A stretch of DNA of 64,000 nt from Alphaproteobacteria bacterium (GCA_965243135.1 OZ251539.1:736001-800000), one strand, 5' to 3'. Shown: positions 111 to 60,034, counted from the first letter of the stretch. Numbers and translations: made by a program. Notes: generated by a model not told the origin, from the sequence alone.

Positions 111-653
111 TCAGGCGCCGGGGAGCTCTTCGCCCCGGTGGAGCAACGGAGACCTGCCTAGGCCGAGCGCGCTCCGGAAATGCCGGACGCACTCGGCGAT
201 CATCTGAAGGAACAGGGCGGCGAATCCGGTCAGGATGCCTGCGAAGAGCGGCCACAGCAGCGGCTTCCAGGGGCTGGCGGGATCCAGTTCGTCAGTGACC
301 CACGCCTCCAGCCATTCCTCCCATGCGCCGATCAGGAGGAAGGTCATCGCCGGAAAGACCAGCGCCAGGTAGACGGCGACGTTGATCCAGTCCTGGATCC
401 TTTGCGGAAACCGGCTCGACAGGAAGTCGATGCGGATGTGGCCGTTGTGCCGCAGCGTGTAGCCCGCGGCGAAGATGAAGCCGATGCCGTTGAGCATGTA
501 GGCCACGTCGTAGGCCCACAGCGTCGGCGCGGAGAACAGGCGTCGCGAAACGACCTCGTACATCATGTCGCCGACGAGAACCAGCAGCATGATCATCGAG
601 ATCGCGGCGAAAAACCGCGAAATCCGGTCGACCGTCGGCAGAAAGCGATTCAT
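111..653 (-). CDS. dctQ: TRAP transporter small permease
   Basis: 180 aa, about 4 TM segments, 'GHIRIDFL' motif, between dctP and dctM. Confidence 0.92.
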   Translation of the reverse strand: MNRFLPTVDRISRFFAAISMIMLLVLVGDMMYEVVSRRLFSAPTLWAYDVAYMLNGIGFIFAAGYTLRHNGHIRIDFLSSRFPQRIQDWINVAVYLALVFPAMTFLLIGAWEEWLEAWVTDELDPASPWKPLLWPLFAGILTGFAALFLQMIAECVRHFRSALGLGRSPLLHRGEELPGA

Positions 654-697
654 GGCGGCGAGCGGCGCCGGGAGTTCCCGGCGCCGCGGCCCGACCG

Positions 698-1753
698 TCA
701 GTTATGCCGGTACGTGCTGAACTTCTTCCAGCGGTCGTAGAAGCCCCAGTACGACTCCGAGGCGCGCGCCATCCACGGATTCCCCTTTGCGGTCTGTTTC
801 TTCGACTGCTCGGCCGACCATGCGCGCCCGAGCTCCTCGATCTTCGCCTGGGCGGCGGCGTCCAGCGTCGACCATTCGTTGCGCCCGGCCTTCAGTTTTT
901 CCATCGCATCGATGTCCTGCACGCCGACCTGCATCGCCGTCTGAAACCCCGAGTAGACGCCCGCGGCCGTAATCTGTTCCTGGAGTTTCTTCGGGAGCTT
1001 GTCCCAGTCGCCGGCGCGGAACACGGCCTCGTTGGAGTGCGACGGGTTATGCAGTCCGGGGACGATGATGAACTTCGCAACCTTGTGGAAGCCGAGTTTG
1101 ATGTTGCTGGACGGAGTGATGAACTCCGTGGCGTCGATCACGCGGCGCTCCAGCGCCGTGTAGATATCGGCCGGCGGGATGACCGTCGCCGAGGCGCCCA
1201 CCATCTTGAGGATGTCGGCCCAGGGTCCTGCCGTCCGTATCTTCATGCCCTTGAGATCGGCGAGCTTTTCGATCTTCTTGTGCGAATGGAGGAAGAATTC
1301 CGTCGAACCCATGCCCGTGACCACGGAATGAAGTTGCTGGGTGTCCCTGCGGAAGCCGGCCAGCAGCTTGTCGCCGCCGCCCGCGAGATACCAGTGCATG
1401 AACTCTTCCATCGGCATGCCGCCGACCGTGCCGCCGAAGATCCCGTTGGCGGGGTCGGCGTTGACCGCGAATCCGGGATAGCAGTAGCAGATGTCCGCGG
1501 TGCCCTTCTGCACCGCCGACCAGGCGTCGAAGGGTCCCGACAGGACGCCGACGCTGAACCCCTTGATCTTCACCTCGCCGTCGGTCAGCAGGTGGACGGC
1601 GTCGATGAAACGCTGCATGTAGTTGTTCCAGGTTCCCGACTTGAGCGGGACGTACGAGGTGAGCTTCCACTCGTATTTCTGGGCCTGCGCCGGGCCGAGC
1701 CCTGCAGCGACCGCAATGGCCGCGGCGCCTGCCAGTTTCGTGAATTTCAGCAT
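698..1753 (-). CDS. dctP: TRAP transporter substrate-binding protein
   Basis: Signal peptide MLKFTKLAGAAAIAVAAGLGPAQA; 'DLKGMKIRT' and 'DIYTALERRVIDATE' motifs; GGAG RBS upstream of ATG 1753. Confidence 0.92.
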   Translation of the reverse strand: MLKFTKLAGAAAIAVAAGLGPAQAQKYEWKLTSYVPLKSGTWNNYMQRFIDAVHLLTDGEVKIKGFSVGVLSGPFDAWSAVQKGTADICYCYPGFAVNADPANGIFGGTVGGMPMEEFMHWYLAGGGDKLLAGFRRDTQQLHSVVTGMGSTEFFLHSHKKIEKLADLKGMKIRTAGPWADILKMVGASATVIPPADIYTALERRVIDATEFITPSSNIKLGFHKVAKFIIVPGLHNPSHSNEAVFRAGDWDKLPKKLQEQITAAGVYSGFQTAMQVGVQDIDAMEKLKAGRNEWSTLDAAAQAKIEELGRAWSAEQSKKQTAKGNPWMARASESYWGFYDRWKKFSTYRHN

Positions 1754-2320
1754 GGTTCTCTCCCTTGTTGCGGAAGTCGCTTCCGGTCGCTGCGCCGGAT
1801 CCGGATCCCGTGCCGTCATTGAAGCACACTTGCGCGTCAATTAACAAACCCAAGGACGACGGGCGCAAACTATATCTCAGCCAGGAAAGGGGCGCTCCCT
1901 GTGGCGAATGACCAACCACGAAAAGAGCGCGCCGCGTCAGGTCGAGCGCCGGCTTAGCCTCGCGCAACGGCGCCGCGCCGCCGGTTCATGGTTTGTCGAA
2001 ACCGGCGCTTGGCGGTTCCATCCAACGCGGAGTTCTCCGTACCGCAACTGCGTCTGACGATCCGTGAAGCGGAGGGCATTCCGGAAGAGCGCGTTACGAA
2101 GGAGGCGCGGGAGGAGCTGTCGTGGCACGGCGCGTGAATCCGCCCGGACCGAGGGCCGGGCAATTGCGCAGTCTTCGCCGGCGCTCGCCGCACCCCGCTT
2201 ATTGCAGGACCCCGCCCTCCGGAGCGTTATCCGCGACCCTGCTTCGGCGAACTCGGGATTCGACTTCACGAACATCCGTTGAGATAAAAAGGCACGAGCA
2301 AGAGTTGCGGGGAACGCAAG

Positions 2321-5300
2321 TTGACCGACGGGTTTCAGAGAACGCTGGATCACATCCGGACGATCGCCGGATCGCAAGCGGAGAAGGGCCGCCTGTTCGA
2401 GCGGCTGATGAAGACCTTCTTTGCCAAGGATCCTCTCTATGCGGAACGCTTTTCGAATGTCCGGCTGTGGTCCGAATGGGCGGAGATCAGGCCGGAATTC
2501 GGCGGAAACGACATCGGCATCGACCTCGTGGCCGAAGAACGGGACGGCGGCTTCTGCGCCATCCAGTGCAAGTGCTACGCCCCCGGCACGACGATTTCGA
2601 AGCCCGACCTCGACTCGTTCATCGCCGCCTCGGCGCGCGATCCCTTCACGGCCCGCATCGTGGTCGACACCGGCGACGGTTGGGGCCCCAACGCCCTCAA
2701 GACCGTCAAGGGCCTGAAGCCGTCTTGCGGCGTCCTGCGTTTCGGCGATCTGGCCGGCCGGCCTTTCGACTGGCCGGATCTGGCCAGCCAGGAACCCGAG
2801 AATCTTTCGTGGCGGGGCGAGGCGTTCAGCCTGCGCCCGCATCAGCGGGAGGCTTTCGACGACGTGATCCGGGGTTTCGGGAACCGCGGCCGCGGCAAGC
2901 TCGTCATGGCCTGCGGCGCCGGCAAGACCTTCACGGCGCTGCGCATCGCGGAAGCCGTCGCCGGCGTCGGCCGGCGGGCGCTTTACCTGGTTCCGTCGAT
3001 CTCCCTCTTCCAGCAATCGATGCGCGAGTGGGCGACCCACCGGGGGATTCCGCACCGCTACGTCGGGATCTGCTCCGACACGCGGGCCGGCCGCACGGAC
3101 GAGGACGCCTCGATGGAGGAGCTGGAAATCCCGGTCACCACGAATCCGGACGCGATCCAGGAAGCGCTTCGTGGCACCGGGAACGACGCGATGACGGTGG
3201 TCTTCTGCACCTACCAGTCGCTGCCTCTGGTGGAGCGGGCGCAGGCGCAGGGCGCTCCCGGGTTCGATCTCGCGATCTGCGACGAAGCCCACCGGACGAC
3301 CGGCGTGGAAATTCCCGACAAGTCGACGTCTCCGTTCGTGCTGATTCACGATGCGAAGAAGATTGCGGCGGAGAAGCGGCTGTACATGACCGCGACGCCG
3401 CGCATCTATGCCGAGGGTGCGAAGGCGAAGGCGGCGAACCGGGCCGTCGAAGTGTTCTCGATGGACGACGAGGAAACCTTCGGGCCCGAGTTCCATCGTC
3501 TGCCGTTTTCGCGGGCGATCGCACGAAACCTGCTGTCCGACTACAAGGTGGTGATCCTCGTGGTGCGGGAGGATGCGGCGGATCCGGCGCTCCGGGCGCA
3601 TCTGGCCGAGGGCGACGGCGAGATCAACCTGACCGACGCGGCGAAGATCGTCGGGTGCTGGCGGGTGCTTCAGAATCCGGAGAACGCCGCCGTCTCCGCG
3701 CCGCTGGGCCGGGCGATCGCGTTCAACGGCAGGATCAAGGATTCGCAGAAGCTGGAGCGGCATTGGGGACCGATCGTCGCGCAGGCCGTGGAACTGTTGC
3801 CCGAGGACGAGCGTCCTGCGGATTTCCGGTGCGAGACCAAGCACGTCGACGGACAGCACAACGCGCTCGACCGCAAGCGGCGGATCGAATGGCTGAAGGA
3901 GGGCGATCGGAGCGCCTGCCGAATACTGACCAACGCGCGCTGCCTGTCGGAGGGGATCGACGTGCCGGCGCTCGACGCGGTGCTGTTCATGAGTCCGCGC
4001 AACTCGCAGGTCGACATCGTGCAGGCGGTCGGTCGGGCCATGCGGAAGGCGGAGGGCAAGGAGTACGGCTACATCGTGCTGCCGGTCGCCGTTCCGCCGA
4101 ACGTGGATCCGGCCCGGGCCCTGGACGACAACGAGCGGTTCGCCGCCGTCTGGGGCGTGCTGCGCTCCCTGCGTTCCCACGACGACAGGTTCAACGCGGA
4201 GATCAACAGGATCGACCTCAACGACACGCCCACCGAGCGAATCGTCATCTGGGACGGAAGCGACGAATCCGCCGGGAACGGCGAACCCTCTGAGCGGACG
4301 CTGCCCTTTCCGCCGCTCGACGTTCCGCCCGGCGCGATCTTCGCCAGGGTCGTCGAGAAATGCGGCGACCGGCGATACTGGGAAAGCTGGGCGAAGGACG
4401 TCGCCGACATCTTCGCGCGTCTGGTCCTTCGTATCGGAAACCTCCTGGACGATCCCGCCAACGAAGCCCTGCGCGAATGGTTCGACGCCTTCCTCGACGA
4501 ACTCAAGGCGTCGATCAACGATTCGATCACTCGCGCGGGCGCCGTCGACATGATGGCGCAGCACATTCTGACGCAGCCGGTCTTCGAGGCGCTGTTCGAG
4601 CGCTACGAATTCGCGAAGAGCAATCCGGTGGCGCGGGCGCTTGACGCGCTGCGGGAGGATTTCTGGGAATTCGGCTTCGAAAACGAACTGGAGGGGCTGG
4701 AGAGCTTCTACGAAAGCGTCCGCATGCGCGCTCGCGGCCTCGACAACAGCGCTGCGCGCCAGCATGTGCTGATGGAACTCTACGAGAAGTTTTTCGCGAC
4801 GGCGCTGAAGAAGGAAACGGATCGGCTCGGCATCGTCTATACGCCCGTCGAAGTGGTGGACTTCATCCTCCGCAGCGCCGACCATGCATTGCGGGAAGAA
4901 TTCGGTCGGTCCCTGAGCGACGAGGGAGTCAACGTGCTCGACCCGTTCACGGGTAGCGGCATCTTCCTCGTCCGGCTTCTCCAGTCGGAGTTGATCGCCG
5001 ACGCCGATCTGGAACGGAAGTTCGGCGGGGAACTTCACGCCAACGAGATCGTCCTCCTCGCCTACTACATCGCGGCGGTCCATATCGAAGAGGCCTTCCA
5101 CGGTCGGGGGGGGGGGCGGGTACGAACCGTTCAATGGCATCGCGCTTGCCGACACCTTCAACCTTCACACGGAGAGAACCGGTTTTCCGAAGGACTGGCT
5201 TCCCGGCAACAGCGAGCGCGTGGAACGGCAGCAGAACCTGCCGATCCAGATCGTCGTCGGCAACCCGCCGTGGTCGGCCTGGCAGAAGAATGCAGCCGAC

Positions 5301-7196
5301 GACAATCCGAATGTCGACTACCCGGAAGTCGAAAGCCGGGTCGCCGAGACCTACGCAGCGTGGTCGCGGGCGACGAACAAGAACAGCCTGTACGACACTT
5401 ACAAGATGGCGGTTCGTTGGGCGTCCGACCGCATCGGCGAGCAGGGCGTCGTCGCCTTCGTCACCAACGGGTCCTGGATCGACGGCAACGTCGATTCCGG
5501 CGTGCGGGCCTGTCTGGCGGAGGAGTTCACGTCCATCTACGTCCTGAACCTGCGGGGCAACGCGAGGACTTCGGGAGAACTGCGACGCAAGGAGGGAGAT
5601 AACGTATTCGGACAGGGATCCCGCGCGCCGGTGGCGATCACGGTGCTGGTCCGCAACCCGAAGGCGGACCGCGAGGACTGCCGCATCCTCTACCGCGACG
5701 TCGGGGACTATCTGACTCGCGAGGACAAGCTGGCCTTTTTGCGGGAGAAGGGATCGATCATGGGCATCGACGACTGGAAGGAAATCGCGCCCGACCGCCA
5801 TCACGACTGGATCGGGCAGCGCAGCGAGGAATTCGGGAAGCTCTATCCGATAGGTTCGAAGGACGCGAAGGCCGGCAAGACCGAAGAAGCGATATTTTCG
5901 CTGTTCAGCAACGGCTACAAGACCGGCAGGGATGCGTATGTGTACAATTTTTCCCGACGTGCTTGCGCGGAGAATGCCCGCCTGATGGTTGACGACTATT
6001 GCGATGCGCTGGAAGAATTCGAGGAAATTATGCGAGGCAAGAAAGACGTTTCAAAATTCGAAATAAATCAGATCGTCGACGATGTCGTATCCTCTAGCAG
6101 GCTGCATTGGGATCAGAAGTTAATAGATAATCTGAGAAGAAGAAAATACATAAAGTTCGAAGAACGTAATCTTTACAGGACAATTTATCGTCCATTTATT
6201 GCTATGAATTTGTACGCCGATCATTTCTTTGCTCAACGGAAATATCGGATGGATTTGATTTTTCCAAAGTTAGTTCGAGGCGAAAACCGTGCGATCTGCG
6301 TTCCGGGCATAGGATCGACCAAGCCGTTCTCCGCCCTCGTAGTCGATACGATGCCGGATCTGGAACTCGTATCTAAAAGTCAGTGCTTCCCGCGATACCG
6401 GTATCGGCGTTCGGAAAACACGCAGGACGAGCTTCCGGGGCTTGAGCCGAAACTCGAACGAGTGGACAATATCGCCGATACAGCCCTTCGAGTCTTTCGC
6501 ACAAAATACGGCGACAACTCCATCTCGAAAGACGCGATATTCGATTACGTCTACGCAGTCCTGCATCATCCGCGTTATCGAGAACGTTTCGCGAACGACT
6601 TGACCAAGGAATTGCCCCGCGTTCCGTTCGCGGCGGATTTCCATGCTTTCGCCGAGGCGGGGCGCAAACTCGCCGATCTTCATCTTCGATACGAGAGCTG
6701 CGACGAGTACCCGCTCGATGTCGAGTTTTCGGGTTCCGAAGAGCCTCGACCGGAACATTTTTGCCTCGGCGATCGGGCAATGCGGTTCGAGGACGACGAA
6801 AGGACAATCCTCCGTGTCAACGAGCACGTGAGCCTCCGCGGTGTCCCCGCCAAGGCGCACGAATACCAAGTCAACGGGAGAACCCCGCTGGAATGGTTTA
6901 TCGACCGTTACAGGATCGTGCAGGATCGCGAGAGCGGCATCGTCAACGACCCGAACGGCTGGTTCGACGACCCGCGTGACCTGATCTCTGCCATCCGCCG
7001 CGTCGTCCATGTCAGCGTGGAAACCTCGCGCATCGTCGCGGCGCTGCCCGAACCGTTTGCCGACGACGAAGCTGATCGGAGCGCGGCCGCTTTTCGGGCC
7101 GAAGCCCAACGCCAATCCCTTGTCGTCGCCCGGAGCCCGCAAGCGCAGGAGGACCAAGATTTTGTCGATGCCGTCACCGACTGGGGCGATGAATGA
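2321..7196 (+). CDS. Type ISP (LlaGI/LlaBIII-like) restriction-modification enzyme: Mrr-like nuclease, SF2 helicase, N6-adenine MTase, TRD; frameshifted at poly-G 5106-5116; C-terminal antitoxin-like tail
   Basis: ORF 2321-5602 has DIGIDLVA..AIQCKCY, MACGAGKT, DEAHRT, LSEGIDVPALD, QAVGRAMR and LDPFTGSG. ORF 5220-7196 has GNPPW, NLRGN and NGRTPLEW. Removing one G joins them into about 1624 aa (..AFHGRGGGGYEPFNGIALADTFNL..). Confidence 0.9.
5106..5116 (+). repeat. G11 homopolymer at the frameshift of RM gene 1
   Basis: cggtc-G11-cgggtacgaaccg; G10 or G13 restores the frame. Confidence 0.9.
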
Positions 7197-7528
7197 AGCG
7201 CGGATGGACGGTTTCAGGAGGAGGAGACTATACGGGCAAACCCCATCCCGCAGTGATCGTTCAGGACGACGGATTCGACGGAACCGCCTTGATCGCGATC
7301 TGTCCCTTCACGACCGACACAGCCGAAGCGCCGTTGATGCGCCTCCCAATCGAACCTGACGGGCGAACGGGCTCGATGCGCTGTCTCATGGTGGACAAGA
7401 TCGCCACTGTATCGACACGGAAGATCGGCAGGCGGACCGGCGAACTCGACAGAGAAGACATCGAACGGCTCGATCAGGCGATAGCCGTTTTCCTCGGCTT
7501 GATGGTTTCGCAAGAAGACATGTGCTGA
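7193..7528 (+). CDS. mazF: MazF/PemK-family toxin, possibly degenerate
   Basis: MKRG-WTVSGGGDYTGKPHPAVIVQDD..CPFTTD..LMVDKI..VFLGL resembles the PemK family; ATGA overlap with the RM gene. The usual KPRP reads KPHP and small deletions are apparent. Confidence 0.8.
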   Translation: MKRGWTVSGGGDYTGKPHPAVIVQDDGFDGTALIAICPFTTDTAEAPLMRLPIEPDGRTGSMRCLMVDKIATVSTRKIGRRTGELDREDIERLDQAIAVFLGLMVSQEDMC

Positions 7529-7898
7529 AAAGCGATGACGGTACCGTTCGAGAAAAGGCAATCCGGTTTGGCCAGTACTGTTTGGCGTGAACCGGCCGGC
7601 GCGACGATATGCCGAGGCCGAACATTGTCGCCGTTCTCGGCGCAAAGCTTATCCTGCGCGCGCTCGAAATATTCCAACGCTCGTTGCATGCCGAAGAAAA
7701 GCGTCATGCCGAACGCGATTTCGAGCCGGTCTCCGCAAAGAGCTCCTGTTCCGTCGCTCGGAGATCCGTTCCTTTGGGCGCGACGTGCCCCTATATGGCA
7801 GCCTTCTTCCGGGCGTCCTGTGGAATGAAGCGCGGCACGAACCGTGCCGACGCCCGAACCCGCGCGCCAGTCTTGGCCGGCGGTTGCGTGGAGCCGTT

Positions 7899-8909
7899 TC
7901 AGTTCCAGCACGCGAAGCCGTTGGCGGTGCCGGTGCCGGCTTCCGACCGGTAGCAGGGCACGTAGTCGATCACGTCGCCCGACAGCTCCGTTTCGAACAG
8001 CACGCCGGCGGCGGCGATCCAGTTCCGCAACTCCGACGAACCCGACATCAGCAACTCCTGTTCGATCCCGCGCAGCGCGTCCGAATCGCGGCCCCGCAGC
8101 GCGTCCAGAAATCTCCGGTCGAGGTCCTCGTCGATGCAGAAATGCGACATGCCGCCGGAACCCACCACGGCGACCCGCGCTTCCGAATTCCAGCCGGCGA
8201 TCGCGCGCCCGATCATCCGGCCGAGATCGAAGCAGCGGCGGGCGGTCGGCTGGTTGGGCGGATAGAAGGTGTTCGCGATGACCGGCAGGGTGGCCACCGT
8301 CCGGTCGCGCATGATCCGCCTCAATATGAAACTGAAGGCGTGCGGGGTTCCTGCATGCCGATGGTTGTCGTGTTCCGGCCAGGCGGCGGACGCGGCGAGA
8401 TCGAAGCCGTCCCGCATCGCCTGCTCGAAGACAACTTCGGCGAGTTCGGGCGCGCCGCGATACTCGGTCCGCCGGTCGGGGCGGTACGCCCACTCCGCCT
8501 CCTCGATGCCGGGAGGCAGAAGCGCCTTCTGCGCGTCGGTCAGCGGCTGATTGTGGAAGATCTCGCCGTGATAAACGGTGAAAGCGGGCTGAATTTCTTC
8601 GAGAAAGAGTTCGCGCTGATCGTTGCCGAGGATGACGCAGACGTCCGGCGCCGCGCTTTCCCAGGCGTCGCCCAGGGCCGCGATGGCCTTTTGGCAGGCG
8701 TCGTAGCGGCGCTGCCGCTCGGCGTCGGTGAACTTTTCGCGAATTCCCTCGCCGGAGCGTCGTTCGACGAGTTCGTCGAACGGCAGTTCTTCTCCCTTGA
8801 ACCAATGCTTGCGGGCGAGGTCGGCCTTGACCCGGTTCGCCCATTGATCCGGCGTGGTGTTGAGGGTCGGGCCGTGGGTCGTCCACATGCCGAGCACGAT
8901 ATCAGCCAT
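7899..8909 (-). CDS. ligZ: LigB-superfamily extradiol dioxygenase, OH-DDVA oxygenase LigZ-like
   Basis: MADIVLGMWTTHGPTL..GNDQRELF..NTFYPPNQPTARRCF..GSGGMSHF..YVPCYRSEAGTGTANGF closely resembles recalled SYK-6 LigZ; DesZ is the related paralog. Confidence 0.82.
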   Translation of the reverse strand: MADIVLGMWTTHGPTLNTTPDQWANRVKADLARKHWFKGEELPFDELVERRSGEGIREKFTDAERQRRYDACQKAIAALGDAWESAAPDVCVILGNDQRELFLEEIQPAFTVYHGEIFHNQPLTDAQKALLPPGIEEAEWAYRPDRRTEYRGAPELAEVVFEQAMRDGFDLAASAAWPEHDNHRHAGTPHAFSFILRRIMRDRTVATLPVIANTFYPPNQPTARRCFDLGRMIGRAIAGWNSEARVAVVGSGGMSHFCIDEDLDRRFLDALRGRDSDALRGIEQELLMSGSSELRNWIAAAGVLFETELSGDVIDYVPCYRSEAGTGTANGFACWN

Positions 8910-8954
8910 CGTATGTCTCCCGTTGTTCGTTGCGCCCCTTGGCCGGCGCGCCGG

Positions 8955-9851
8955 TCATCGATTGCGGCCCTCCGGAGCGGTGATGTCGCGAACGCCGTCG
9001 CCCATCAGATTGACCGCGATCACGAGCAGGAATATCGCGAGGCCCGGCAGCGCGATCAGATAGGGCTTGAAGAACATGAAACTGCGTCCCTCCGAGACGA
9101 GCAACCCCCACGACGGGGTAGGGGGCTGAATCCCGAGCCCGAGAAAGGAAAGAACCGCTTCCACGAGGATGGCGATCCCGGTCTCCAGGCTGGCGACCAC
9201 GATGATCTGGCTCATCACGTTCGGAAGGATTTCGCGCAGGACGATCCGGGTTCGCGATGCGCCGACCGCCTCCGCCGCCGTCACGAACTCGTTGTTGCGG
9301 ACTTGCTGGGTGGCGCTGCGCACCACGACCGCGAATCGGTCCCAGAACAGGAAGCCGAGAATGCAGACGATCGCGAGGAGCGAGCCGCCGAATACCGACA
9401 CCAGCGACAGGGCGATCAGGATGCCGGGAAGGGCCAGCTTCACGTTGATGAGATACATCACGGCGGCGTCCGCGCGGCCGCCGAAATACCCGCCGATCAA
9501 TCCGATCGTCGATCCGACGAGGCCGGAGATGGCCGCGGCGCCGAGGCCGACGATCAGCGATATCCGCGCGCCGTAGAGGATTCGGGTGAGGTAGTCGCGG
9601 CCGAGGGAATCGGTTCCGAGCGGATGCGACCAGGTGCCGCCGTCGCCCCAGACCGGATTGATCAGCCGGGCGTCGAGGTTCTGCGCGAACGGATCGAACG
9701 GCGTCACCGCGGGCGCGAACGCCGCCAGCAGCGAGATCGCCAGGACGAATCCGGTTCCGAGAAGGAATCCGGCATGCGACAGCGCGCGCCGCCGCATGAT
9801 CTCGCGCGGCGACGGCGCCGCGAATTCGGTCGTTTCGTCGGCGTCGCGCAC
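8955..9851 (-). CDS. Peptide/nickel-type ABC transporter permease (DppC/OppC-like)
   Basis: HPLGTDSLGRD, EAA loop (EFVTAAEAVGAS), LSFLGLGIQPPTPSWG. Confidence 0.93.
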   Translation of the reverse strand: MRDADETTEFAAPSPREIMRRRALSHAGFLLGTGFVLAISLLAAFAPAVTPFDPFAQNLDARLINPVWGDGGTWSHPLGTDSLGRDYLTRILYGARISLIVGLGAAAISGLVGSTIGLIGGYFGGRADAAVMYLINVKLALPGILIALSLVSVFGGSLLAIVCILGFLFWDRFAVVVRSATQQVRNNEFVTAAEAVGASRTRIVLREILPNVMSQIIVVASLETGIAILVEAVLSFLGLGIQPPTPSWGLLVSEGRSFMFFKPYLIALPGLAIFLLVIAVNLMGDGVRDITAPEGRNR

Positions 9852-9860
9852 CTTCGCCTC

Positions 9861-10778
9861 CTAATCCAGCCGAATGCGGGGATCGAGCCGCGCGTTGATC
9901 AGATCGGACGCCAGCGTGAGCAGGATGTAGGCGAACGATACGAACACCAGGATCGACTGGACGACGGGAAAATCGCTTCTGAGAATCGACTGATAGGCGA
10001 GCAGCCCGATGCCGTTCAGCGCGAAGACCGCCTCGACGATCACCGATCCCCCGAGCAGGAATCCCAGCGACACGGCGGAAAGCGACACCACGGGCAGGAT
10101 CGCGTTGCGCAGCGCGTGCTTGAAGAAGACGGTCGAAGCGTGCAGCCCCTTCGCCCAGGCGGTGCGGACGAAGTCCGCGTCCAGCACCTCCAGCATTCCG
10201 GCGCGGGTAAGCCGCATGAGCGCCGGCATTACCGTCGTGCCGAGAGTGACGGTCGGCAGCACGTAATGCGCGAAGTCGCCGGACCCGGATATCGGCAACC
10301 AGCGCAGGAGGACGCCGAACAGGTAGATCAGCAGCAGGCCGAACCAGAAATTGGGGATCGCCTGCCCGAATACGGCGATCGCGAGCGCCGCCCGGTCGAT
10401 CCACGTGTTCATCCTGACGGCGGCGAGCACGCCGAGCGGAACGGCGATCAGGAGCGCCAGGGCAAGGGAGTATAGGGACAGTCGGACGGTGACGCCGATG
10501 CGCTCGAGTATGAGTTCCGTGACCGGTTCGTTGGTGAACAGCGATTGTCCGAGATCGCCGCGGAGCGCCTTTCCGGCCCAGTCGAGGTACTGCGCGTGCA
10601 ACGGGCGGTCGAGACCGTAGAGCCTGGCGATCTCGGCGACCTCCTCGGGCGTCGCGTCCTCGCCGGCCAGGTCGGCCGCGAGGTCCCCGGAGAGCCGCAA
10701 TAGCGCGAAGCCGATGACCGACACCGTTATGGCGACCAGAAGCGCGACGCCCGCCCTCTGCAGGAAGAAGCGGCCCAC
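9861..10778 (-). CDS. Peptide/nickel-type ABC transporter permease (DppB/OppB-like)
   Basis: GLDRPL..QY, GDLGQS, DFVRTAWAKGL, KHALRNA, GGSVIVEAVF. Confidence 0.93.
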   Translation of the reverse strand: MGRFFLQRAGVALLVAITVSVIGFALLRLSGDLAADLAGEDATPEEVAEIARLYGLDRPLHAQYLDWAGKALRGDLGQSLFTNEPVTELILERIGVTVRLSLYSLALALLIAVPLGVLAAVRMNTWIDRAALAIAVFGQAIPNFWFGLLLIYLFGVLLRWLPISGSGDFAHYVLPTVTLGTTVMPALMRLTRAGMLEVLDADFVRTAWAKGLHASTVFFKHALRNAILPVVSLSAVSLGFLLGGSVIVEAVFALNGIGLLAYQSILRSDFPVVQSILVFVSFAYILLTLASDLINARLDPRIRLD

Positions 10779-10802
10779 CTTGCGCTCCGCCGCTCCGCGC
10801 GG

Positions 10803-11816
10803 TCAGAGCCCGAGTCCGAAGACGCGTTTCGCGTTGCCGGAAAGAAGCTTCTCCTTGTCGGCGTCGGACAGCCAGTCGAAAGACGCGATGTGGTGAGCGA
10901 CGTCGTCCATGTGCCGCCCGGTGTCCGGATTGATCGAGGAGCCGACGCCCGGACATTCGGCGCCGAACAGGCACTGGTCGACGCCCGCCACGCGGATCAG
11001 CAGCTCGATCGCTTCCGGCGTGTACAGAACCGTGTCGTAATGCAGGCGGCGCATTCGCCGGCTGAACCGTTCCGCGCCCTCGCGCCGCAACGTGCCGGAC
11101 TCGAAGCGTCCGAGCTGGTAGGGAATCGCGCCGCCGCCGTGGCTCACGACGATCTTGAGATCCGGAAAGTCGTCGAGGACGGCGGAGTTCACCAGACCGT
11201 ACACGGCCGTCGTCTCCTCGTTGATGAAGCGCAAGGAGTAGGGTTCCCGTTCGGACCTCGATCCGGTGCCGTGAATGTGAGCCGGAACGTCGAGTTCGCA
11301 CAGCTTCTCGTAGAGGGGATACCAGTAGCGGTCGCCCAGAGCCGGCGGATGGACGCCGGTGTTTTCGTAGGGGTCGGGGTTGAGCAGGCATCCTCTGAAG
11401 CCGAGCTCGCCGACGCAGCGTTCAAGTTCGGCGATCGCCATGTCGAGCGGTTCCCCGCAGGGCTGCGGCAGACCGGCGACGCCGACGAAGCGGTTCGGGT
11501 ACAACTGCGTTTCGCGGTAAATGACGTCGTTGCACTCCTCGTGGAACCATTGCACGAGTTTCGCGGGTTTTTCGGAGTGCATGAGCTGGAAGGGCCGCGG
11601 CGACAGGAGCTGCAGGTCGGTCCCCAGTTCGTCGAGGTAGCTCATGTGGCTGTGTCCCGATCCGGGGAAGTGCTTTTCTTCGACGGAGCGGCGGATGTCG
11701 TCGTCGCTGACGACGACCTTGCCCCGGCCGTGCGAACCGCGATGGGCCAGCAGCGTGGCCTTGTAGGCCCAGAGTTCCGCGGGCGCGCTGACGTGGGCGT
11801 GACAGTCGATTATCAT
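10803..11816 (-). CDS. ligY: Amidohydrolase-fold meta-cleavage product hydrolase, LigY-like
   Basis: MIIDCHAHVSAPAELWAYKATLLAHRGSHGRG..LLNPDPYEN..LGDRYWYPLYEKLCELD..SHGGGAIPYQLGRFES..ECPGVGS closely resembles recalled SYK-6 LigY. Confidence 0.85.
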   Translation of the reverse strand: MIIDCHAHVSAPAELWAYKATLLAHRGSHGRGKVVVSDDDIRRSVEEKHFPGSGHSHMSYLDELGTDLQLLSPRPFQLMHSEKPAKLVQWFHEECNDVIYRETQLYPNRFVGVAGLPQPCGEPLDMAIAELERCVGELGFRGCLLNPDPYENTGVHPPALGDRYWYPLYEKLCELDVPAHIHGTGSRSEREPYSLRFINEETTAVYGLVNSAVLDDFPDLKIVVSHGGGAIPYQLGRFESGTLRREGAERFSRRMRRLHYDTVLYTPEAIELLIRVAGVDQCLFGAECPGVGSSINPDTGRHMDDVAHHIASFDWLSDADKEKLLSGNAKRVFGLGL

Positions 11817-55150: not shown

Positions 55151-55554
55151 GGTTGGCCGTTTTACGGTTTGGAGCGTGCGGGTCGAACTGTTCCATGTCC
55201 CGTGGGTTGCCGTTCGCACGGGAACGTCCGCGCCGCGCGCGCATTCTCCCGCTCCCAACGCGGACGAACCCGCGGTTCGTGGCGCTTCGCGTCCGAATCG
55301 GTGAGCGCAAGCATGGTTGCGTCGGCGGTCGCTGCACGGTCCCGTCATTGCTCGGAAACGCCGAACGCTTTCCGGCGTTCGTAAATCGGCCTCGACGGTT
55401 CGCTGGCGATTACCGGTGACGTATCCCGCTTCGACCGACAGGGCACGCGTCGCGGCTGTGCATGAATTTGCCTGGCTCGGTATTTTGTTGTTCTGTCAGG
55501 GGCGTCGCGGGCGGCGGAACGCCGGACGCTTCCTCGCAAGAACGGGCGGCAGCA

Positions 55555-58500
55555 ATGAAGGAAAACCAGGAAATGGATGGTTTCGCAGACAGTTTGGGAG
55601 ATCGTTGCAAGGCATTGTCGGAAAAGAAGGGAACGGAAAAGGGACGAGAGTTTGAAGTCCTGCTTGCCCAATGGTTGCCCCGGATTCCGGAAACCGAACT
55701 GGAAGAAGTTTGGCGCTGGTCCGACACTCCGTCTGCGTTGAGGGAACGAATTGCCCCAAGGACGAAACGGGCCGATACCGGAATAGATCTCGTTGCGAAA
55801 CGCCGGGATGGCGGTCTCGTTGCAATCCAGGCCAAGTGCTACGCGCCGGACCAAAAGGTGGAGGCCTCGGAGCTGGGAACCTCGGCGCTGACGACGGGAA
55901 ACGCGGATCTGGCCGGGAAATGGCTTGTGACCACCGGGGGGTGGACGCGCAATCTGGAACGCAGCGCATCGGATTGGACGTTGATTCACGCTCCCACCCA
56001 CTGGTCGCATGTGGTCCTGCAGGACAAGCGGCCCAGGAAGAGCCTGGATGCGCAGCAGCGCGAGGCCTTCGACGCGGCGGTAGATGGACTGAGGAAACAC
56101 GACCGGGGAACGCTGGTCATGGCCTGCGGAACCGGGAAGACCCTGACCTCGCTGCGGGTAGCCGAGAAGCTCGCGCCGAACGGCGGTCTGGTCCTGTACG
56201 CGACGCCGAGCATCGGCCTTACCGCGCAATCGCGGCGGGAATGGCTTCGGGAGGCCGGGCGTCCTTTGCACACGGTTGTTGTGTGTTCGGACATTGGAGC
56301 GGGAACGGGCTGGAGCAATGAAGTCGAGGCGCCGGTAACGACGGATCCGGAAACCATCGCGAGAGCGGTGAAGAAAGCGGGTCAAGCAGCCGGAAGCGAG
56401 GGGTTGGTTGCGGTTTTCAGCACCTATCAGTCAATGGAAAAGCTTTGCCTTGCCCAAGAAGAACACGGCCTTCCCGATATCGACCTGATGATCGCGGACG
56501 AGGCTCATCGAACGACGGGCGTCGTGAAGGACGACGATCCGAAGGCGTTCCAGATGGCCCACCATCGGCTTCGGGCGCGCAAGCGGCTGTACCAGACGGC
56601 GACGCCGCGCATCTTCTCGCGGCGCAGCCAAAAGAAGATCATCGACGGGATCGCAACGCAAACCGAAAGCAGGGTGGACATCCACGATATGGACGACGTT
56701 TCCACCTACGGCCCGGAGTTGCACAGGTTGACCTTCAGCGAAGCATTGCAGGCACCGGAAGAAGAGCGAAGGCTGTCGGATTACAGAGTGGTCGTGTTTT
56801 TCGTAAGCGACATGGCTGGCGGAGCGGAAGCCGCCGGACGCCAAGCGGTCGAAAAGCTGAAGGATACATCGTTGGCCGAGCGGATCGCCGGTCTCGGCCG
56901 TCTGATGCTGACCGGGGAGGGCGGGAATGAGCCGAACGAGCTTTCGAACGTTCGCAGTTGCATCGCTTATTGCAACAAGCTCGTCAATGCGAAGGAAGCG
57001 AAAAACATTTTGCAGGACAAGGAAGGCGGCATCCGCAGGTGGGCGGCCAGGATGGCCGAGCAGGACGGAAAGCGCCTCGGTCCGGAGGTGCGGCTGGCCG
57101 CCGGGTATCTGGACGGAAATTCGGACACTGCGGAGCGGATAAGGGAACTGGACAAGCTGGCCAAAGCCTCGGACGCGCAGCGCCGGGTGACCACGAACGT
57201 CAAGGTCCTGTCCGAAGGGATAGACGTTCCGGCGCTGGATGCCATCTGTTTTCTGGAGGAACGCAAGGGCGAGATCGACATCGTTCAGGCGGTCGGCAGG
57301 GTGATGCGCAAGCCGCCGGGGGGAGGCAAGGAATGCGGATACGTGGTCGTCCCGGTCGTCGCGAGCGCTCAACTGGATCTGGAACTGAACCTGAGCGAAT
57401 GGTGGAACAAGGACTGGCGCGTGCTCGGGCAGGTGTTGCGGGCGCTGCGCGCGCACGACGCGCGGATCGAGACGGACCTGGAAAAGCTGCTGATCGTTAC
57501 GTCCGACCACGGCGGCAAGGACGGAAGAGACGGGGACGACCAGGACGACGACCGGGGCGATTTCTGGAGCAAATTGAAAGAAGGGATTTTCGACGCCTTG
57601 GTGCCCGTGATTATGGAGAAATCGGGCATCAATCCGGACGGTGCCGAAAGGGTCAACCTGATCAAGCAGGCCGTGACGAGCGCAGCGACCCAAATCCGCA
57701 GGGAAAGCGGTCTGGGAGCCAGACTGGCCTCCGCCGTGGGCGTGGAGGAAGAAACCGGCGACCCCGAAAAGCGGGCTTGCGGGGCCGCGGCGCTGATAAT
57801 CGCGAACGCGCTGCTGATGCACCAAAGAATCGACGAGACCCGGAAGGACGAGCGCCGTCTACGCGTGACGCCGCTGCGGGAAGTGAAAAGCCTGCGAGAT
57901 CCGGAAAAGGTCTTGCTGTCCGACTGGAACCGGATATTGGAACTGGATTACCGGGTGATTTTCGAGCCGGCGATAAGGGTGATTAGAAATTCCGGGGGGG
58001 GGGGGGGGCGAAAACGGAATTCCCGAAGGAATGCGGTATGCGCTGCAGACGTTGGCAAAGCACTGCGGCGAGATCGCTTCGCAGTACGCCGAAATGGGAA
58101 TGGACCACGCCGGCGAACTGTTCCAGGCCGCGATCGACAATGCAGCGGCGGACGGAGCTTATTACACGCTGTCGCCCGGAGCGATGCTGCTGGCCGAGTT
58201 GGCCTGCGACGCCAAGGCGGATGAGGGGGATGGCGTGTGGGCCGATCCCGATACGTGGGTCAGAGAGTGCGTTCTCGATCCGGCCTGCGGCTCAGGAACC
58301 TTGTTGACGGCATTCGCTTCGGCCGTTCGGCGAAGAGCCGCTGCACTCTTAACCGACGACGGACGCTTGGCGAAAATAGGCAAGGCGCTTGTCGAGGACG
58401 GCCTCGCCGGCTTGGATATCAATGAAAGGGCGCTGCAAATTGCCGGAACGCAACTGGCGATAGGCGCTTCCGATACCGGACTCTCGCGCATGGGGCTCTG

Positions 58501-60034
58501 GTCAATGCCAAGAAAAGTCTCCGGTGCGGAGAAAATAACGGCCGCAACCGTACGCTTGGGTGCACTGGAACTGTTGTCCACATTGAGGGACGGCGCGATT
58601 AGGACGGACGACCTGTTCAAGGGCACGAAGGACGCTAACGAAACCGAAGGAATCCGCATCGACATTGCGGAGGACGCGGAGCACGGCAGCATGAGGAAAC
58701 ACCTCAGCCGGACGACGGTCTGCATCAGCAATCCGCCATACTCGAATTCGGCAAAGGAAGGCGAGAATCAGAATGCCGCCGTCCGCAAAGCCATGCAGGC
58801 GAGGAAGAAACGCATGAGGGCCTTCGTGGCCCGTCACAGGCCGGAACTCGCGCCGATACTCAATCCGAACAGCGTTAGACCGTGGTTTTCCGTCCTCATG
58901 GAGGAGCTGGTCGATCCCGATCGCGGCGTTGTGGCAAAGGTAATGCCGACGACGGCCTGCACGGCCGCGGACCCCTCCGAACGCAAGTTCTGGTCCCGGA
59001 ATTTCGACGTTCTGTATATCGTGACCTTGCACAATCCGAAAACGCTGAACTGGAGCGTCAGCACGGGAATCACGGAAAGCATGATGATCGCAAGGCGCCG
59101 AAACGGCGGCGATCGGCCGAAAACCCGTTTCGTGTCCTTGGCGCGGCGCCCCGAAACGGTCGACGACGTCCTGGAACTGAGGGACGGGATTCGTTCGGAA
59201 GACTTGGGCGACTGGGGACGGATCTGCTTATGGCCGTCGAAGCGCATGGAGATCGGGGATTGGTCTCCAGCCGTCTGGTATCATCCTGCCCTTGCCGAAG
59301 CCGGATACCTGCTCGACAGCCTTGCGGAAAAGGACGGATGGACGAGGCTCGGGGAATTGGGAGCCATCCGGACGACGAAGGAAATCGTGGGAAAGGAAAA
59401 GTGGGAGTGGTGCGGCCCAGATTTCGCTGAAGTTCCGGTTACGAGGGGAGCCGGCTCGGATGCGCAGACCTGTCTTTCAGGAAGAATCGACGATCACGCC
59501 CGCCGCGCGATCGACTTCAGGGATGATCCGAATACCTGGAAAAGGCTGACGGAGAAGGTCGGTTATCTTCACATCGCGAATACCCAGTGCTCCGTCAGCG
59601 CGCGAGTGAATTCCATAGCGCTGGATCAACCTGCCGTAGGCTATACATGGACTCCCGTACAGGAAACAGGCAAAGACGAGTCTCAGGCGCTGTCCGTTTG
59701 GCTGAATTCTTCGCTTGGAAGAATTTTAATGCGCAGGATTTGGACCAGAAAGCTCAATTGGCCGATGTACCAGCCCGACGCTCTCGAAAAACTGGTGATA
59801 CCGGACAATAGAACGAAATTTGGGCGCGATGCCTTGGAAGTCCTGCGGGAGTGTTACCGAGAAACGCGGAATATCGAGGTCGGCCCGTACAGGGATGGAT
59901 ATTCCGATGTCCGGCGCAAATGGGACGTCGCCGTTGCCGAGGCCGTCGGCATCGATGTCGCCCAACTCCGGGAATACGGAGAGCGATTAGCGCAGGAACC
60001 AACCATACGAGGGAAGGTCGATCAGGAATCGTAA
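55555..60034 (+). CDS. Second nuclease-helicase-N6 MTase fusion (Type ISP-like RM), frameshifted at poly-G 57994-58008
   Basis: First ORF has DTGIDLVA..AIQAKCY, MACGTGKT, DEAHRT, LSEGIDVPALD and QAVGRVMR. ORF 58031-60034 has YYT, LDPACGSGTLL and SNPPY. G14 or G17 joins them (G14 gives about 1492 aa). Confidence 0.87.
57994..58008 (+). repeat. G15 homopolymer at the frameshift of RM gene 2
   Basis: aattcc-G15-cgaaaacgga. Confidence 0.9.

Follow-up and report, generated by a model that had tools for sequence, protein, structure and literature searches.

The analysis of a 64,000-nucleotide stretch of DNA from an Alphaproteobacteria bacterium (GCA_965243135.1, OZ251539.1:736001-800000; the window), with positions counted from its first letter, identified a gene for a Type ISP restriction-modification (RM) enzyme that ends in part of a MazE-like antitoxin and overlaps a gene encoding a MazF toxin. 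With a probability of roughly 70%, the RM enzyme is itself the antitoxin of its cognate MazF, the two forming a conserved pair of which the copy in the window is probably disarmed or switched off. This reading is drawn from the sequence and from comparison with other genomes. The features of the locus are as follows.

2321 to 5105, plus strand: Type ISP RM enzyme, first frame, comprising an Mrr-type nuclease, a superfamily 2 (SF2) helicase-like ATPase, a coupler and the start of the methyltransferase (Pfam).
5106 to 5116, plus strand: run of 11 G, the site of the frame break, likely a phase-variable tract or a length miscall (translation, comparison).
5117 to 7040, plus strand: Type ISP RM enzyme, second frame, comprising the remainder of the methyltransferase (GNPPWS motif) and the target-recognition domain (Pfam).
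7041 to 7076, plus strand: acidic linker (LPEPFADDEADR) between the usual Type ISP end and the tail (tail alignment A2).
7077 to 7193, plus strand: MazE-like antitoxin tail RSAAAFRAEAQRQSLVVARSPQAQEDQDFVDAVTDWGDE, C-terminal half only (PF11455, alignment, and the ratio of non-synonymous to synonymous substitution rates, dN/dS).
7193 to 7196, plus strand: ATGA overlap of the mazF start (ATG, 7193-7195) and the Type ISP stop (TGA, 7194-7196).
7193 to 7528, plus strand: mazF (PemK family), with His for a conserved Arg and two 2-residue deletions (Pfam, alignment A1).

The frame ending at 7196 reads ..RRVVHVSVETSRIVAALPEPFADDEADRSAAAFRAEAQRQSLVVARSPQAQEDQDFVDAVTDWGDE and continues past the usual Type ISP end into the tail. 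The tail matched Pfam PF11455 (MazE-like, formerly DUF3018) over profile positions 25-65 of 65, with an E value of 5.8e-7 and 29.8 bits (cut-off 22). Profile positions 1-24 (..GLRPIQIWVPD) are unmatched and the Type ISP body stands in their place; as the N-terminal half is unmatched, the tail is a fragment of this family and not a whole member. In the window, the tail retains each of the six columns that are invariant in an 18-row tail alignment. A paralog in the same genome shares 83% identity over 654 residues and terminates in ..NLPDVFTEGRS, aligned with query residue 654 of 693; because it stops exactly where the tail starts, the tail is regarded as an addition to a normal Type ISP end. 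Similarly, 59 of 71 related long proteins stop 5-30 residues past the LP motif. The layout is that of a type II toxin-antitoxin (TA) system, with the antitoxin-coding sequence directly upstream of, and overlapping, the toxin gene; the same start/stop overlap was present in all eight other fused loci and in most canonical MazE-like/mazF pairs. The toxin gene encodes a MazF of 111 residues that matched PemK_toxin (PF02452) over positions 15-109 of 109 (1e-16, 61.6 bits). An initial annotation of this DNA had described the tail beyond the usual enzyme end, its likeness to a MazE-like antitoxin without the N-terminus, and the overlap with a PemK/MazF gene, all of which were borne out.

A PF11455 profile search of the organism's own genome found no complete MazE-like gene, and promoter-like sites near mazF were not above chance. 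The other half of a split antitoxin gene was sought at a weak match to the N-terminal half of PF11455 (G000:C1:4456848-4456928), and this candidate was rejected as part of an unrelated 202-residue protein. The protein (G000:C1:4455348-4458428, with the match on the minus strand) adjoins a PspA-like gene and has a start that resembles the MazE-like N-terminal half (..RLQRAGLTPVEVWIP); similar frames of 212-230 residues occur in about eight relatives.

To find the fusion elsewhere, a degenerate DNA pattern spanning the enzyme WF motif to the tail motif EDQ.F.D...DW was scanned against 185,579 species, each represented by a single genome. Of 11 loci found, eight carried a Type ISP gene with the tail and an overlapping mazF, in alpha- and gammaproteobacteria, and the other three were chance matches within canonical mazEF loci. 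A full-length mazF with the KPRP motif was present in seven of the eight fused loci; in the remaining one (L054, in genome G040) mazF ends after ~35 codons. The frames were unbroken (1619-1656 residues) in each of the six carrier loci seen at full length. The G040 enzyme, from another family of the same order, is an unbroken protein of 1621 residues, 70% identical, with the same kind of tail. In this genome (L014/L054), a gene of more than 421 residues (MTLPGGPANKLGNRYEMWWTV..) starts ~50 bases past the stop of the mazF remnant, and its insertion may have truncated mazF. The tail was further present in seven more full-length protein clusters (P0151-P0157, 1601-1636 residues) and in three distant fragments (P0003, P0005 and P0018), which are 42-54% identical in the junction. 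As these searches were seeded with the window junction, they show presence and not frequency. MazE-tailed Type ISP enzymes were not found in viral contigs, nor in plasmids, where two records matched the Type ISP end only. The initial annotation had suggested a search for tailed enzymes followed by mazF, and had allowed that the fusion might be a chance deletion; with the fusion and an overlapping mazF in eight other genomes, it is not unique and that caveat was dismissed.

Two shorter metagenomic proteins also retain the tail. P0002 (233 residues) joins the nuclease start to the last ~80 residues, and P0044 (121 residues) joins a methyltransferase fragment to the MazE-like tail. Both resemble the products of Type ISP genes that have lost large internal segments in frame, and possibly are assembly artefacts. 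The MazE-like C-terminal tail was also observed on other, unrelated N-terminal parts of 30-120 residues (P0053, P0064, P0130 and locus L053), so that it behaves as a portable module.

Comparison of the window with three fused relatives gave dN/dS values of 0.19-0.39 for the tail, 0.24-0.35 for mazF and 0.18-0.33 for the enzyme C-terminal body, which points to purifying selection on both tail and mazF. In all five carrier genomes searched with PF11455 (E <= 0.01), no stand-alone gene of the family was found; the sole match was the Type ISP tail, and one genome with a divergent tail gave zero matches. An intact MazF beside no other recognisable cognate antitoxin suggests that the tail does the neutralising. 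The proposal of the initial annotation that the RM enzyme acts as antitoxin is thus backed by comparison, through recurrence in eight genomes, purifying selection and the lack of a stand-alone PF11455 gene in five carriers.

The tail and toxin were also co-folded, as the initial annotation had advised, using two MazF chains and a 51-residue tail. The run used our own alignments, so that the following benchmark counts hold only roughly. The score was 0.45, and the best of three controls reached 0.01. The mark is reached by 58 of 80 solved complexes and by two of 110 mismatched pairs. The runs share at least 81% of contacts, and the partner has a predicted local distance difference test (pLDDT) value of at least 62.

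The enzyme itself belongs to the Type ISP class. Within 2321-5113, Pfam identified Mrr_cat_2 (1e-32), ResIII (6.7e-21), Helicase_C (8.9e-9), ISP_coupler (9.3e-41) and N6_Mtase (7e-4), that is, the N-terminal Mrr-type nuclease, SF2 helicase-like ATPase and coupler of the class. Within 5115-7193, Type_ISP_C was matched with 8.1e-92 and 308 bits. The N6_Mtase match of the first piece (19.4 bits) and an Eco57I match in the second (19.8 bits) were each slightly below their own cut-offs. The N6-adenine methyltransferase and the Type ISP C-terminal specificity domain are thus both present, and the translation contains the GNPPWS motif. The second-frame part is 70% identical to the intact 1621-residue G040 protein over 691 residues.

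The initial annotation had treated 2321-7196 as one Type ISP frame, which proved incorrect. The open reading frames (ORFs) at 2321..5602 and 5220..7196 lie in different frames, and no single open frame spans 2321-7196. The translation is good up to ..EEAFHGRGGG before the G run, and resumes in the other frame, GGGGGYEPFNGIALADTF.., after it. As the frame switches inside the 11-G run, the tail is not translated from the start at 2321 in the sequence as it stands. With 10 G or 13 G at 5106-5116, a single frame of ~1624 residues would result. On either side of this run, the gene is open and conserved. It does not have the appearance of an old pseudogene.

Long runs of this kind are a feature of the genome, which has a GC content of 65%. 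There are 55 G:C runs of 10-21 bases (C1:2085613-2085633 and C1:2859508-2859524 are examples) and only seven of 9 bases, so that the longer runs are a separate class of tracts. All four Type ISP-like genes of the genome hold one, and the frame is broken there in three.

Window, 5106-5116: Type ISP gene with the antitoxin tail; 11 G; frame broken.
Own-genome paralog (intact): run of 17 bases, in the loop that also holds the 11-G run; in frame (HGRRGGGGGYEPF).
C1:2085613-2085633: third Type ISP-like gene, at 2.085 megabases; 21-base run; frame broken at the run.
Window, 57994-58008: fourth Type ISP-like gene, at 55462-60034; 15 G; frame broken at the run.

The gene at 55462-60034 encodes Mrr_cat_2, ResIII and Helicase_C followed by a methyltransferase, with no tail and no toxin gene downstream. 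About a dozen of the genome's G:C runs lie just upstream of very long ORFs (870-2000 residues, third-position GC 0.85-0.95). The fused orthologs in other genomes have no G run in the loop that holds the 11-G run of the window. The long runs look like a set of contingency loci, and the 11-G run itself looks like phase variation, or at least like one of a set of tracts of unreliable called length. Contigs of four public sequencing runs were compared with 2200-7700, and among those listed none bridges 5066-5106; the X1 and X2 contigs are identical to 6701-7700 and may be the source organism's own data.

A dip in GC content to 0.46 was observed at 6001-6500, inside the target-recognition part, with values of 0.60-0.69 around it. 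Between the window and its relatives, the synonymous divergence (dS) was ~1.5 for the enzyme C-terminal body, far above that of the tail and mazF, which was 0.5-0.7 for the two closest relatives. The GC dip and the high dS of the body suggest that the recognition domain of this gene has been exchanged.

The MazF of the window departs from its relatives at conserved positions. In a 22-row alignment (A1), it carries KPHP for KPRP, with Arg present in all 21 aligned relatives, and two 2-residue deletions, after MKRG and after RTG, that occur in no other row; overall, six of its residues differ from the consensus at columns with a conservation of 90% or more. Among the 120 closest MazF clusters, the position is Arg in 114, His in five and Ser in one. 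The conserved Arg of the RP motif, which is needed for RNA cleavage, is therefore absent from this copy. In the accessible text of a study of MazF-Da, the R25A substitution in the RP motif left no RNase activity (PMC8634880). The profile of A1, which includes the window MazF, matches the solved MazF9, MazF7 and EndoA, and the profile alignment places the conserved-Arg column of the window at the RP motif of MazF9; the window MazF alone gave no PDB sequence match at E <= 0.001. A 92% identical metagenomic relative of this MazF, P0222, has the His and both deletions in common with the window. It differs from the window at two further columns, Q24P and T40K, where the 22-row alignment shows little or no variation. 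On this evidence, the window MazF is read as weakened or recently inactivated. The initial annotation had noted KPHP and small deletions and raised decay as a caveat, which for this copy is supported by the altered toxin together with the RM frame broken at the G run. The window copy is thus probably phase-OFF, or miscalled, with a weakened toxin.

The same enzyme family also appears to have acquired a second, VapB-type tail. Five Type ISP clusters (P0159, P0195, P0209, P0213 and P0216) end in G.ILEALRRSPLVGA.IDFTRP.EEGREVVL, a tail with no Pfam or NCBIfam match. Of 401 genomes of the class, 16 encode a small protein whose C-terminus matches this tail (49-72% identity; 54-72% in the twelve loci that were read). 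The stop of the small protein overlaps an intact PIN-domain gene in 11 of the twelve loci, and in the other, L075, the toxin gene is cut short. In plasmid records, the gene downstream of the small protein is annotated as a VapC family toxin; these records contain canonical vapB-vapC pairs only. A pattern scan for the fused form gave one chance match, in a canonical vapBC locus, among metagenome contigs and none among viral contigs. A candidate for a VapB-tailed fusion in genome G140 was rejected as a decayed canonical vapB.

The nearest known systems are the canonical PF11455/MazF pairs, in which the toxin is of the same family (the window MazF is 57-63% identical to alphaproteobacterial MazF, or 53-64% by tblastn), the antitoxin has the same C-terminal segment (EAHRQSLAVA..EDQAFIDA..DW) and there is the same overlap of stop and start. 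In related genomes, the antitoxin of canonical loci has ~75 residues, ..LRAQGLRPIQIWVPDVRA.SF.AEAHRQSLAVA.S..A.EDQAFIDAVSDW.DE, and its stop overlaps the MazF start. The difference is that the antitoxin N-terminal half of ~25 residues (..LRAQGLRPIQIWVPD) is replaced here by a restriction enzyme of 1580 residues. This half presumably serves dimerisation and operator binding, and with its replacement antitoxin autoregulation would presumably be lost in the fusion.

The enzyme part has the same order of Mrr nuclease, helicase-like ATPase, coupler, methyltransferase and target-recognition domain as LlaGI and LlaBIII, which are given as Type ISP enzymes in the accessible part of a 2025 RM review (PMC12707154). 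The window gene differs in its added 40-residue antitoxin tail and toxin gene, and in the frame break at the G run. Phase-variable RM genes (contingency loci, phasevarions) are known mostly from low-GC pathogens and from Type I and III systems. As in these, a long G run inside the RM ORF sets the frame here; the differences are the 65% GC genome, the Type ISP class, the tie of one gene to a toxin, and the availability of a single called run length per gene. CapRel is a TA system with an unusual or fused antitoxin carrier. Fused HicA/HicB forms have been described, and EzeT is cited, in the accessible text of PMC10865869. The present arrangement resembles these fused-antitoxin systems (EzeT, fused HicAB, CapRel) in that the segment that neutralises the toxin is fused to a domain with another function; in those systems, however, its fusion partner is the cognate toxin or a DNA-binding domain, whereas the carrier here is a restriction enzyme.

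In the proposed mechanism, the single-chain Type ISP enzyme ends in the C-terminal half of PF11455, presumed to be the toxin-binding part. While full-length enzyme is made, the tail would keep the MazF dimer inactive. Where the enzyme gene is lost or truncated, or the enzyme or tail is not renewed or is degraded, the RNase would be freed and growth would stop. We infer the binding, the neutralisation and the trigger. As a matter of speculation, an enzyme that switches on and off would be difficult to keep together with an active toxin, and this is a possible reason for the altered MazF of the window.

What such a pair does for its host can be explained in several ways. It is possible, and tentatively proposed, that it acts as an addiction or truncation lock. 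With the antitoxin in the last 40 of 1620 residues, a deletion, frameshift or nonsense mutation anywhere in the costly 4.9-kb gene would remove it, and pre-made MazF would stop the mutant. The unbroken frames of all six full-length carrier genes agree with this, as does the contrast between G040, which keeps enzyme and tail intact and has lost mazF, and the window, which has a broken enzyme frame and an altered MazF Arg. The seemingly internally deleted enzymes P0002 and P0044 retain the tail, although each is a single metagenomic gene call. The locus also lies outside any defence island, among transporter and catabolic genes: TRAP-transporter genes (111-1840, minus strand) on one flank, and LigB-type dioxygenase and ABC permease genes (7899-11816, minus strand) on the other. 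However, with an overlapping start, mazF translation may also drop when the upstream frame is shortened, which weakens the lock. A second-line abortive infection role is considered rather unlikely; here, MazF would be released to cut RNA once a phage that has escaped restriction stops host gene expression or removes the tail by degradation or displacement. MazEF and other type II systems are described in phage defence in the accessible texts of two sources (PMC10865869; PMC12707154), and the presence of two unrelated tails, MazE-like and VapB-like, on one defence enzyme class argues that the tails are linked to the defence role of the enzyme rather than to one toxin family. Nevertheless, searches of viral contigs and plasmids did not recover the fused form, and the sequences give nothing to separate a shut-off trigger from addiction.

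A guard role, the idea raised in the initial annotation, appears unlikely. In this case, MazF would be freed when the Type ISP enzyme is bound or inhibited by an anti-restriction protein of a phage, as T4 Stp frees PrrC from EcoprrI. The toxin would be physically linked to the RM enzyme through the tail. However, MazE-type tails bind their toxins as extended peptides in solved MazE-MazF complexes of other families, and it is hard to picture how an inhibitor bound elsewhere on a 180-kDa enzyme would release such a peptide. RM guardians of this logic are known, and PrrC and PARIS are named as such in the accessible part of the 2025 review (PMC12707154). As described there, EcoprrI-PrrC is like the present locus in that an RNase is kept latent by the RM enzyme of the same locus. 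PrrC differs in not being a type II toxin, in being held non-covalently by the whole HsdRMS complex (Type IC) and in having Stp as its trigger, whereas here the antitoxin peptide would be part of the RM polypeptide. Nothing in the sequences favours guard logic over addiction or a shut-off trigger. It is quite improbable that the tail is a tether, leaving MazF active and bringing it to the enzyme as an additional subunit that might, for instance, cleave transcripts on invading DNA. Conservation of the tail together with an intact mazF would fit this; however, the tail is homologous to that half of the canonical antitoxin which, in ordinary mazEF pairs, is encoded beside the toxin gene, a MazF that is not neutralised should be toxic, and PF11455 searches of the five carrier genomes gave no other antitoxin. 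That the fusion is a chance, functionless product decaying in this lineage is scarcely credible: the frame break and altered MazF of this copy would agree with it, but the arrangement recurs in eight other genomes of two classes, the tail is present in seven more full-length clusters, and selection is purifying.

The following points weigh against the reading of the enzyme as a conserved antitoxin with a disarmed copy in the window. The co-fold verdict amounts to weak support. Among the complexes that reach the mark with scores of 0.60 or below there are only seven of the 80 solved complexes, and both passing mismatches are found there. Solved MazE-MazF complexes of other families exist, and likeness to them may raise the score; the tail profile had no sequence match in the PDB. 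In a FastTree phylogeny of the first 900 residues of 73 enzymes, with four proteins shorter than 1500 residues left out, the tail-bearing enzymes are scattered, with at least five label changes for the MazE tail and two for the VapB tail, so that the C-terminal module either moves between enzymes or has been repeatedly lost. The VapB-tailed enzymes are known from protein sequences alone. With regard to the state of the window copy, His also occupies the Arg position in four further MazF clusters of the 120 closest that are ordinary in other respects, and this residue may therefore be tolerated and not inactivating. The dN/dS of the window mazF (0.31-0.35) is only slightly above that of the relatives (0.24-0.32); as it is barely raised, the gene must have been under constraint through most of its past, so that a loss of toxin function, if there is one, is recent or partial. 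Lastly, the G-run length could be a sequencing miscall, and the enzyme would then be intact.

A full-text literature search, which extended to papers outside subscription and excluded supplements, found no description of an RM enzyme, Type ISP or other, with an antitoxin tail, and the accessible part of the 2025 review, which covers the RM guardians, mentions no such fusion (PMC12707154). Known RM guardians such as PrrC and PARIS are separate proteins, and known type II antitoxins are small regulators; here, the antitoxin peptide would lie within a 180-kDa defence enzyme, in an arrangement conserved across two bacterial classes. If the reading is correct, then loss, truncation or shut-off of the restriction layer, or interference with it, would arm RNA cleavage and growth arrest. 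We suggest, with less confidence than in the pairing itself and below even odds, that Type ISP enzymes are a recurrent platform for tails of at least two unrelated antitoxin families, the enzyme serving as the guarded, labile antitoxin of an RNase in a two-layer module, which in this organism may be phase-variable with its toxin blunted so that the OFF state is survivable. The long G:C tracts in all Type ISP-like genes of this high-GC genome suggest that phase-variable restriction extends beyond the usual low-GC pathogens. If the tail neutralises MazF, the locus would provide a testable case of wiring between defence layers, and would show how the loss or truncation of a large and costly defence gene can be prevented and how toxin-binding peptides move between carriers.

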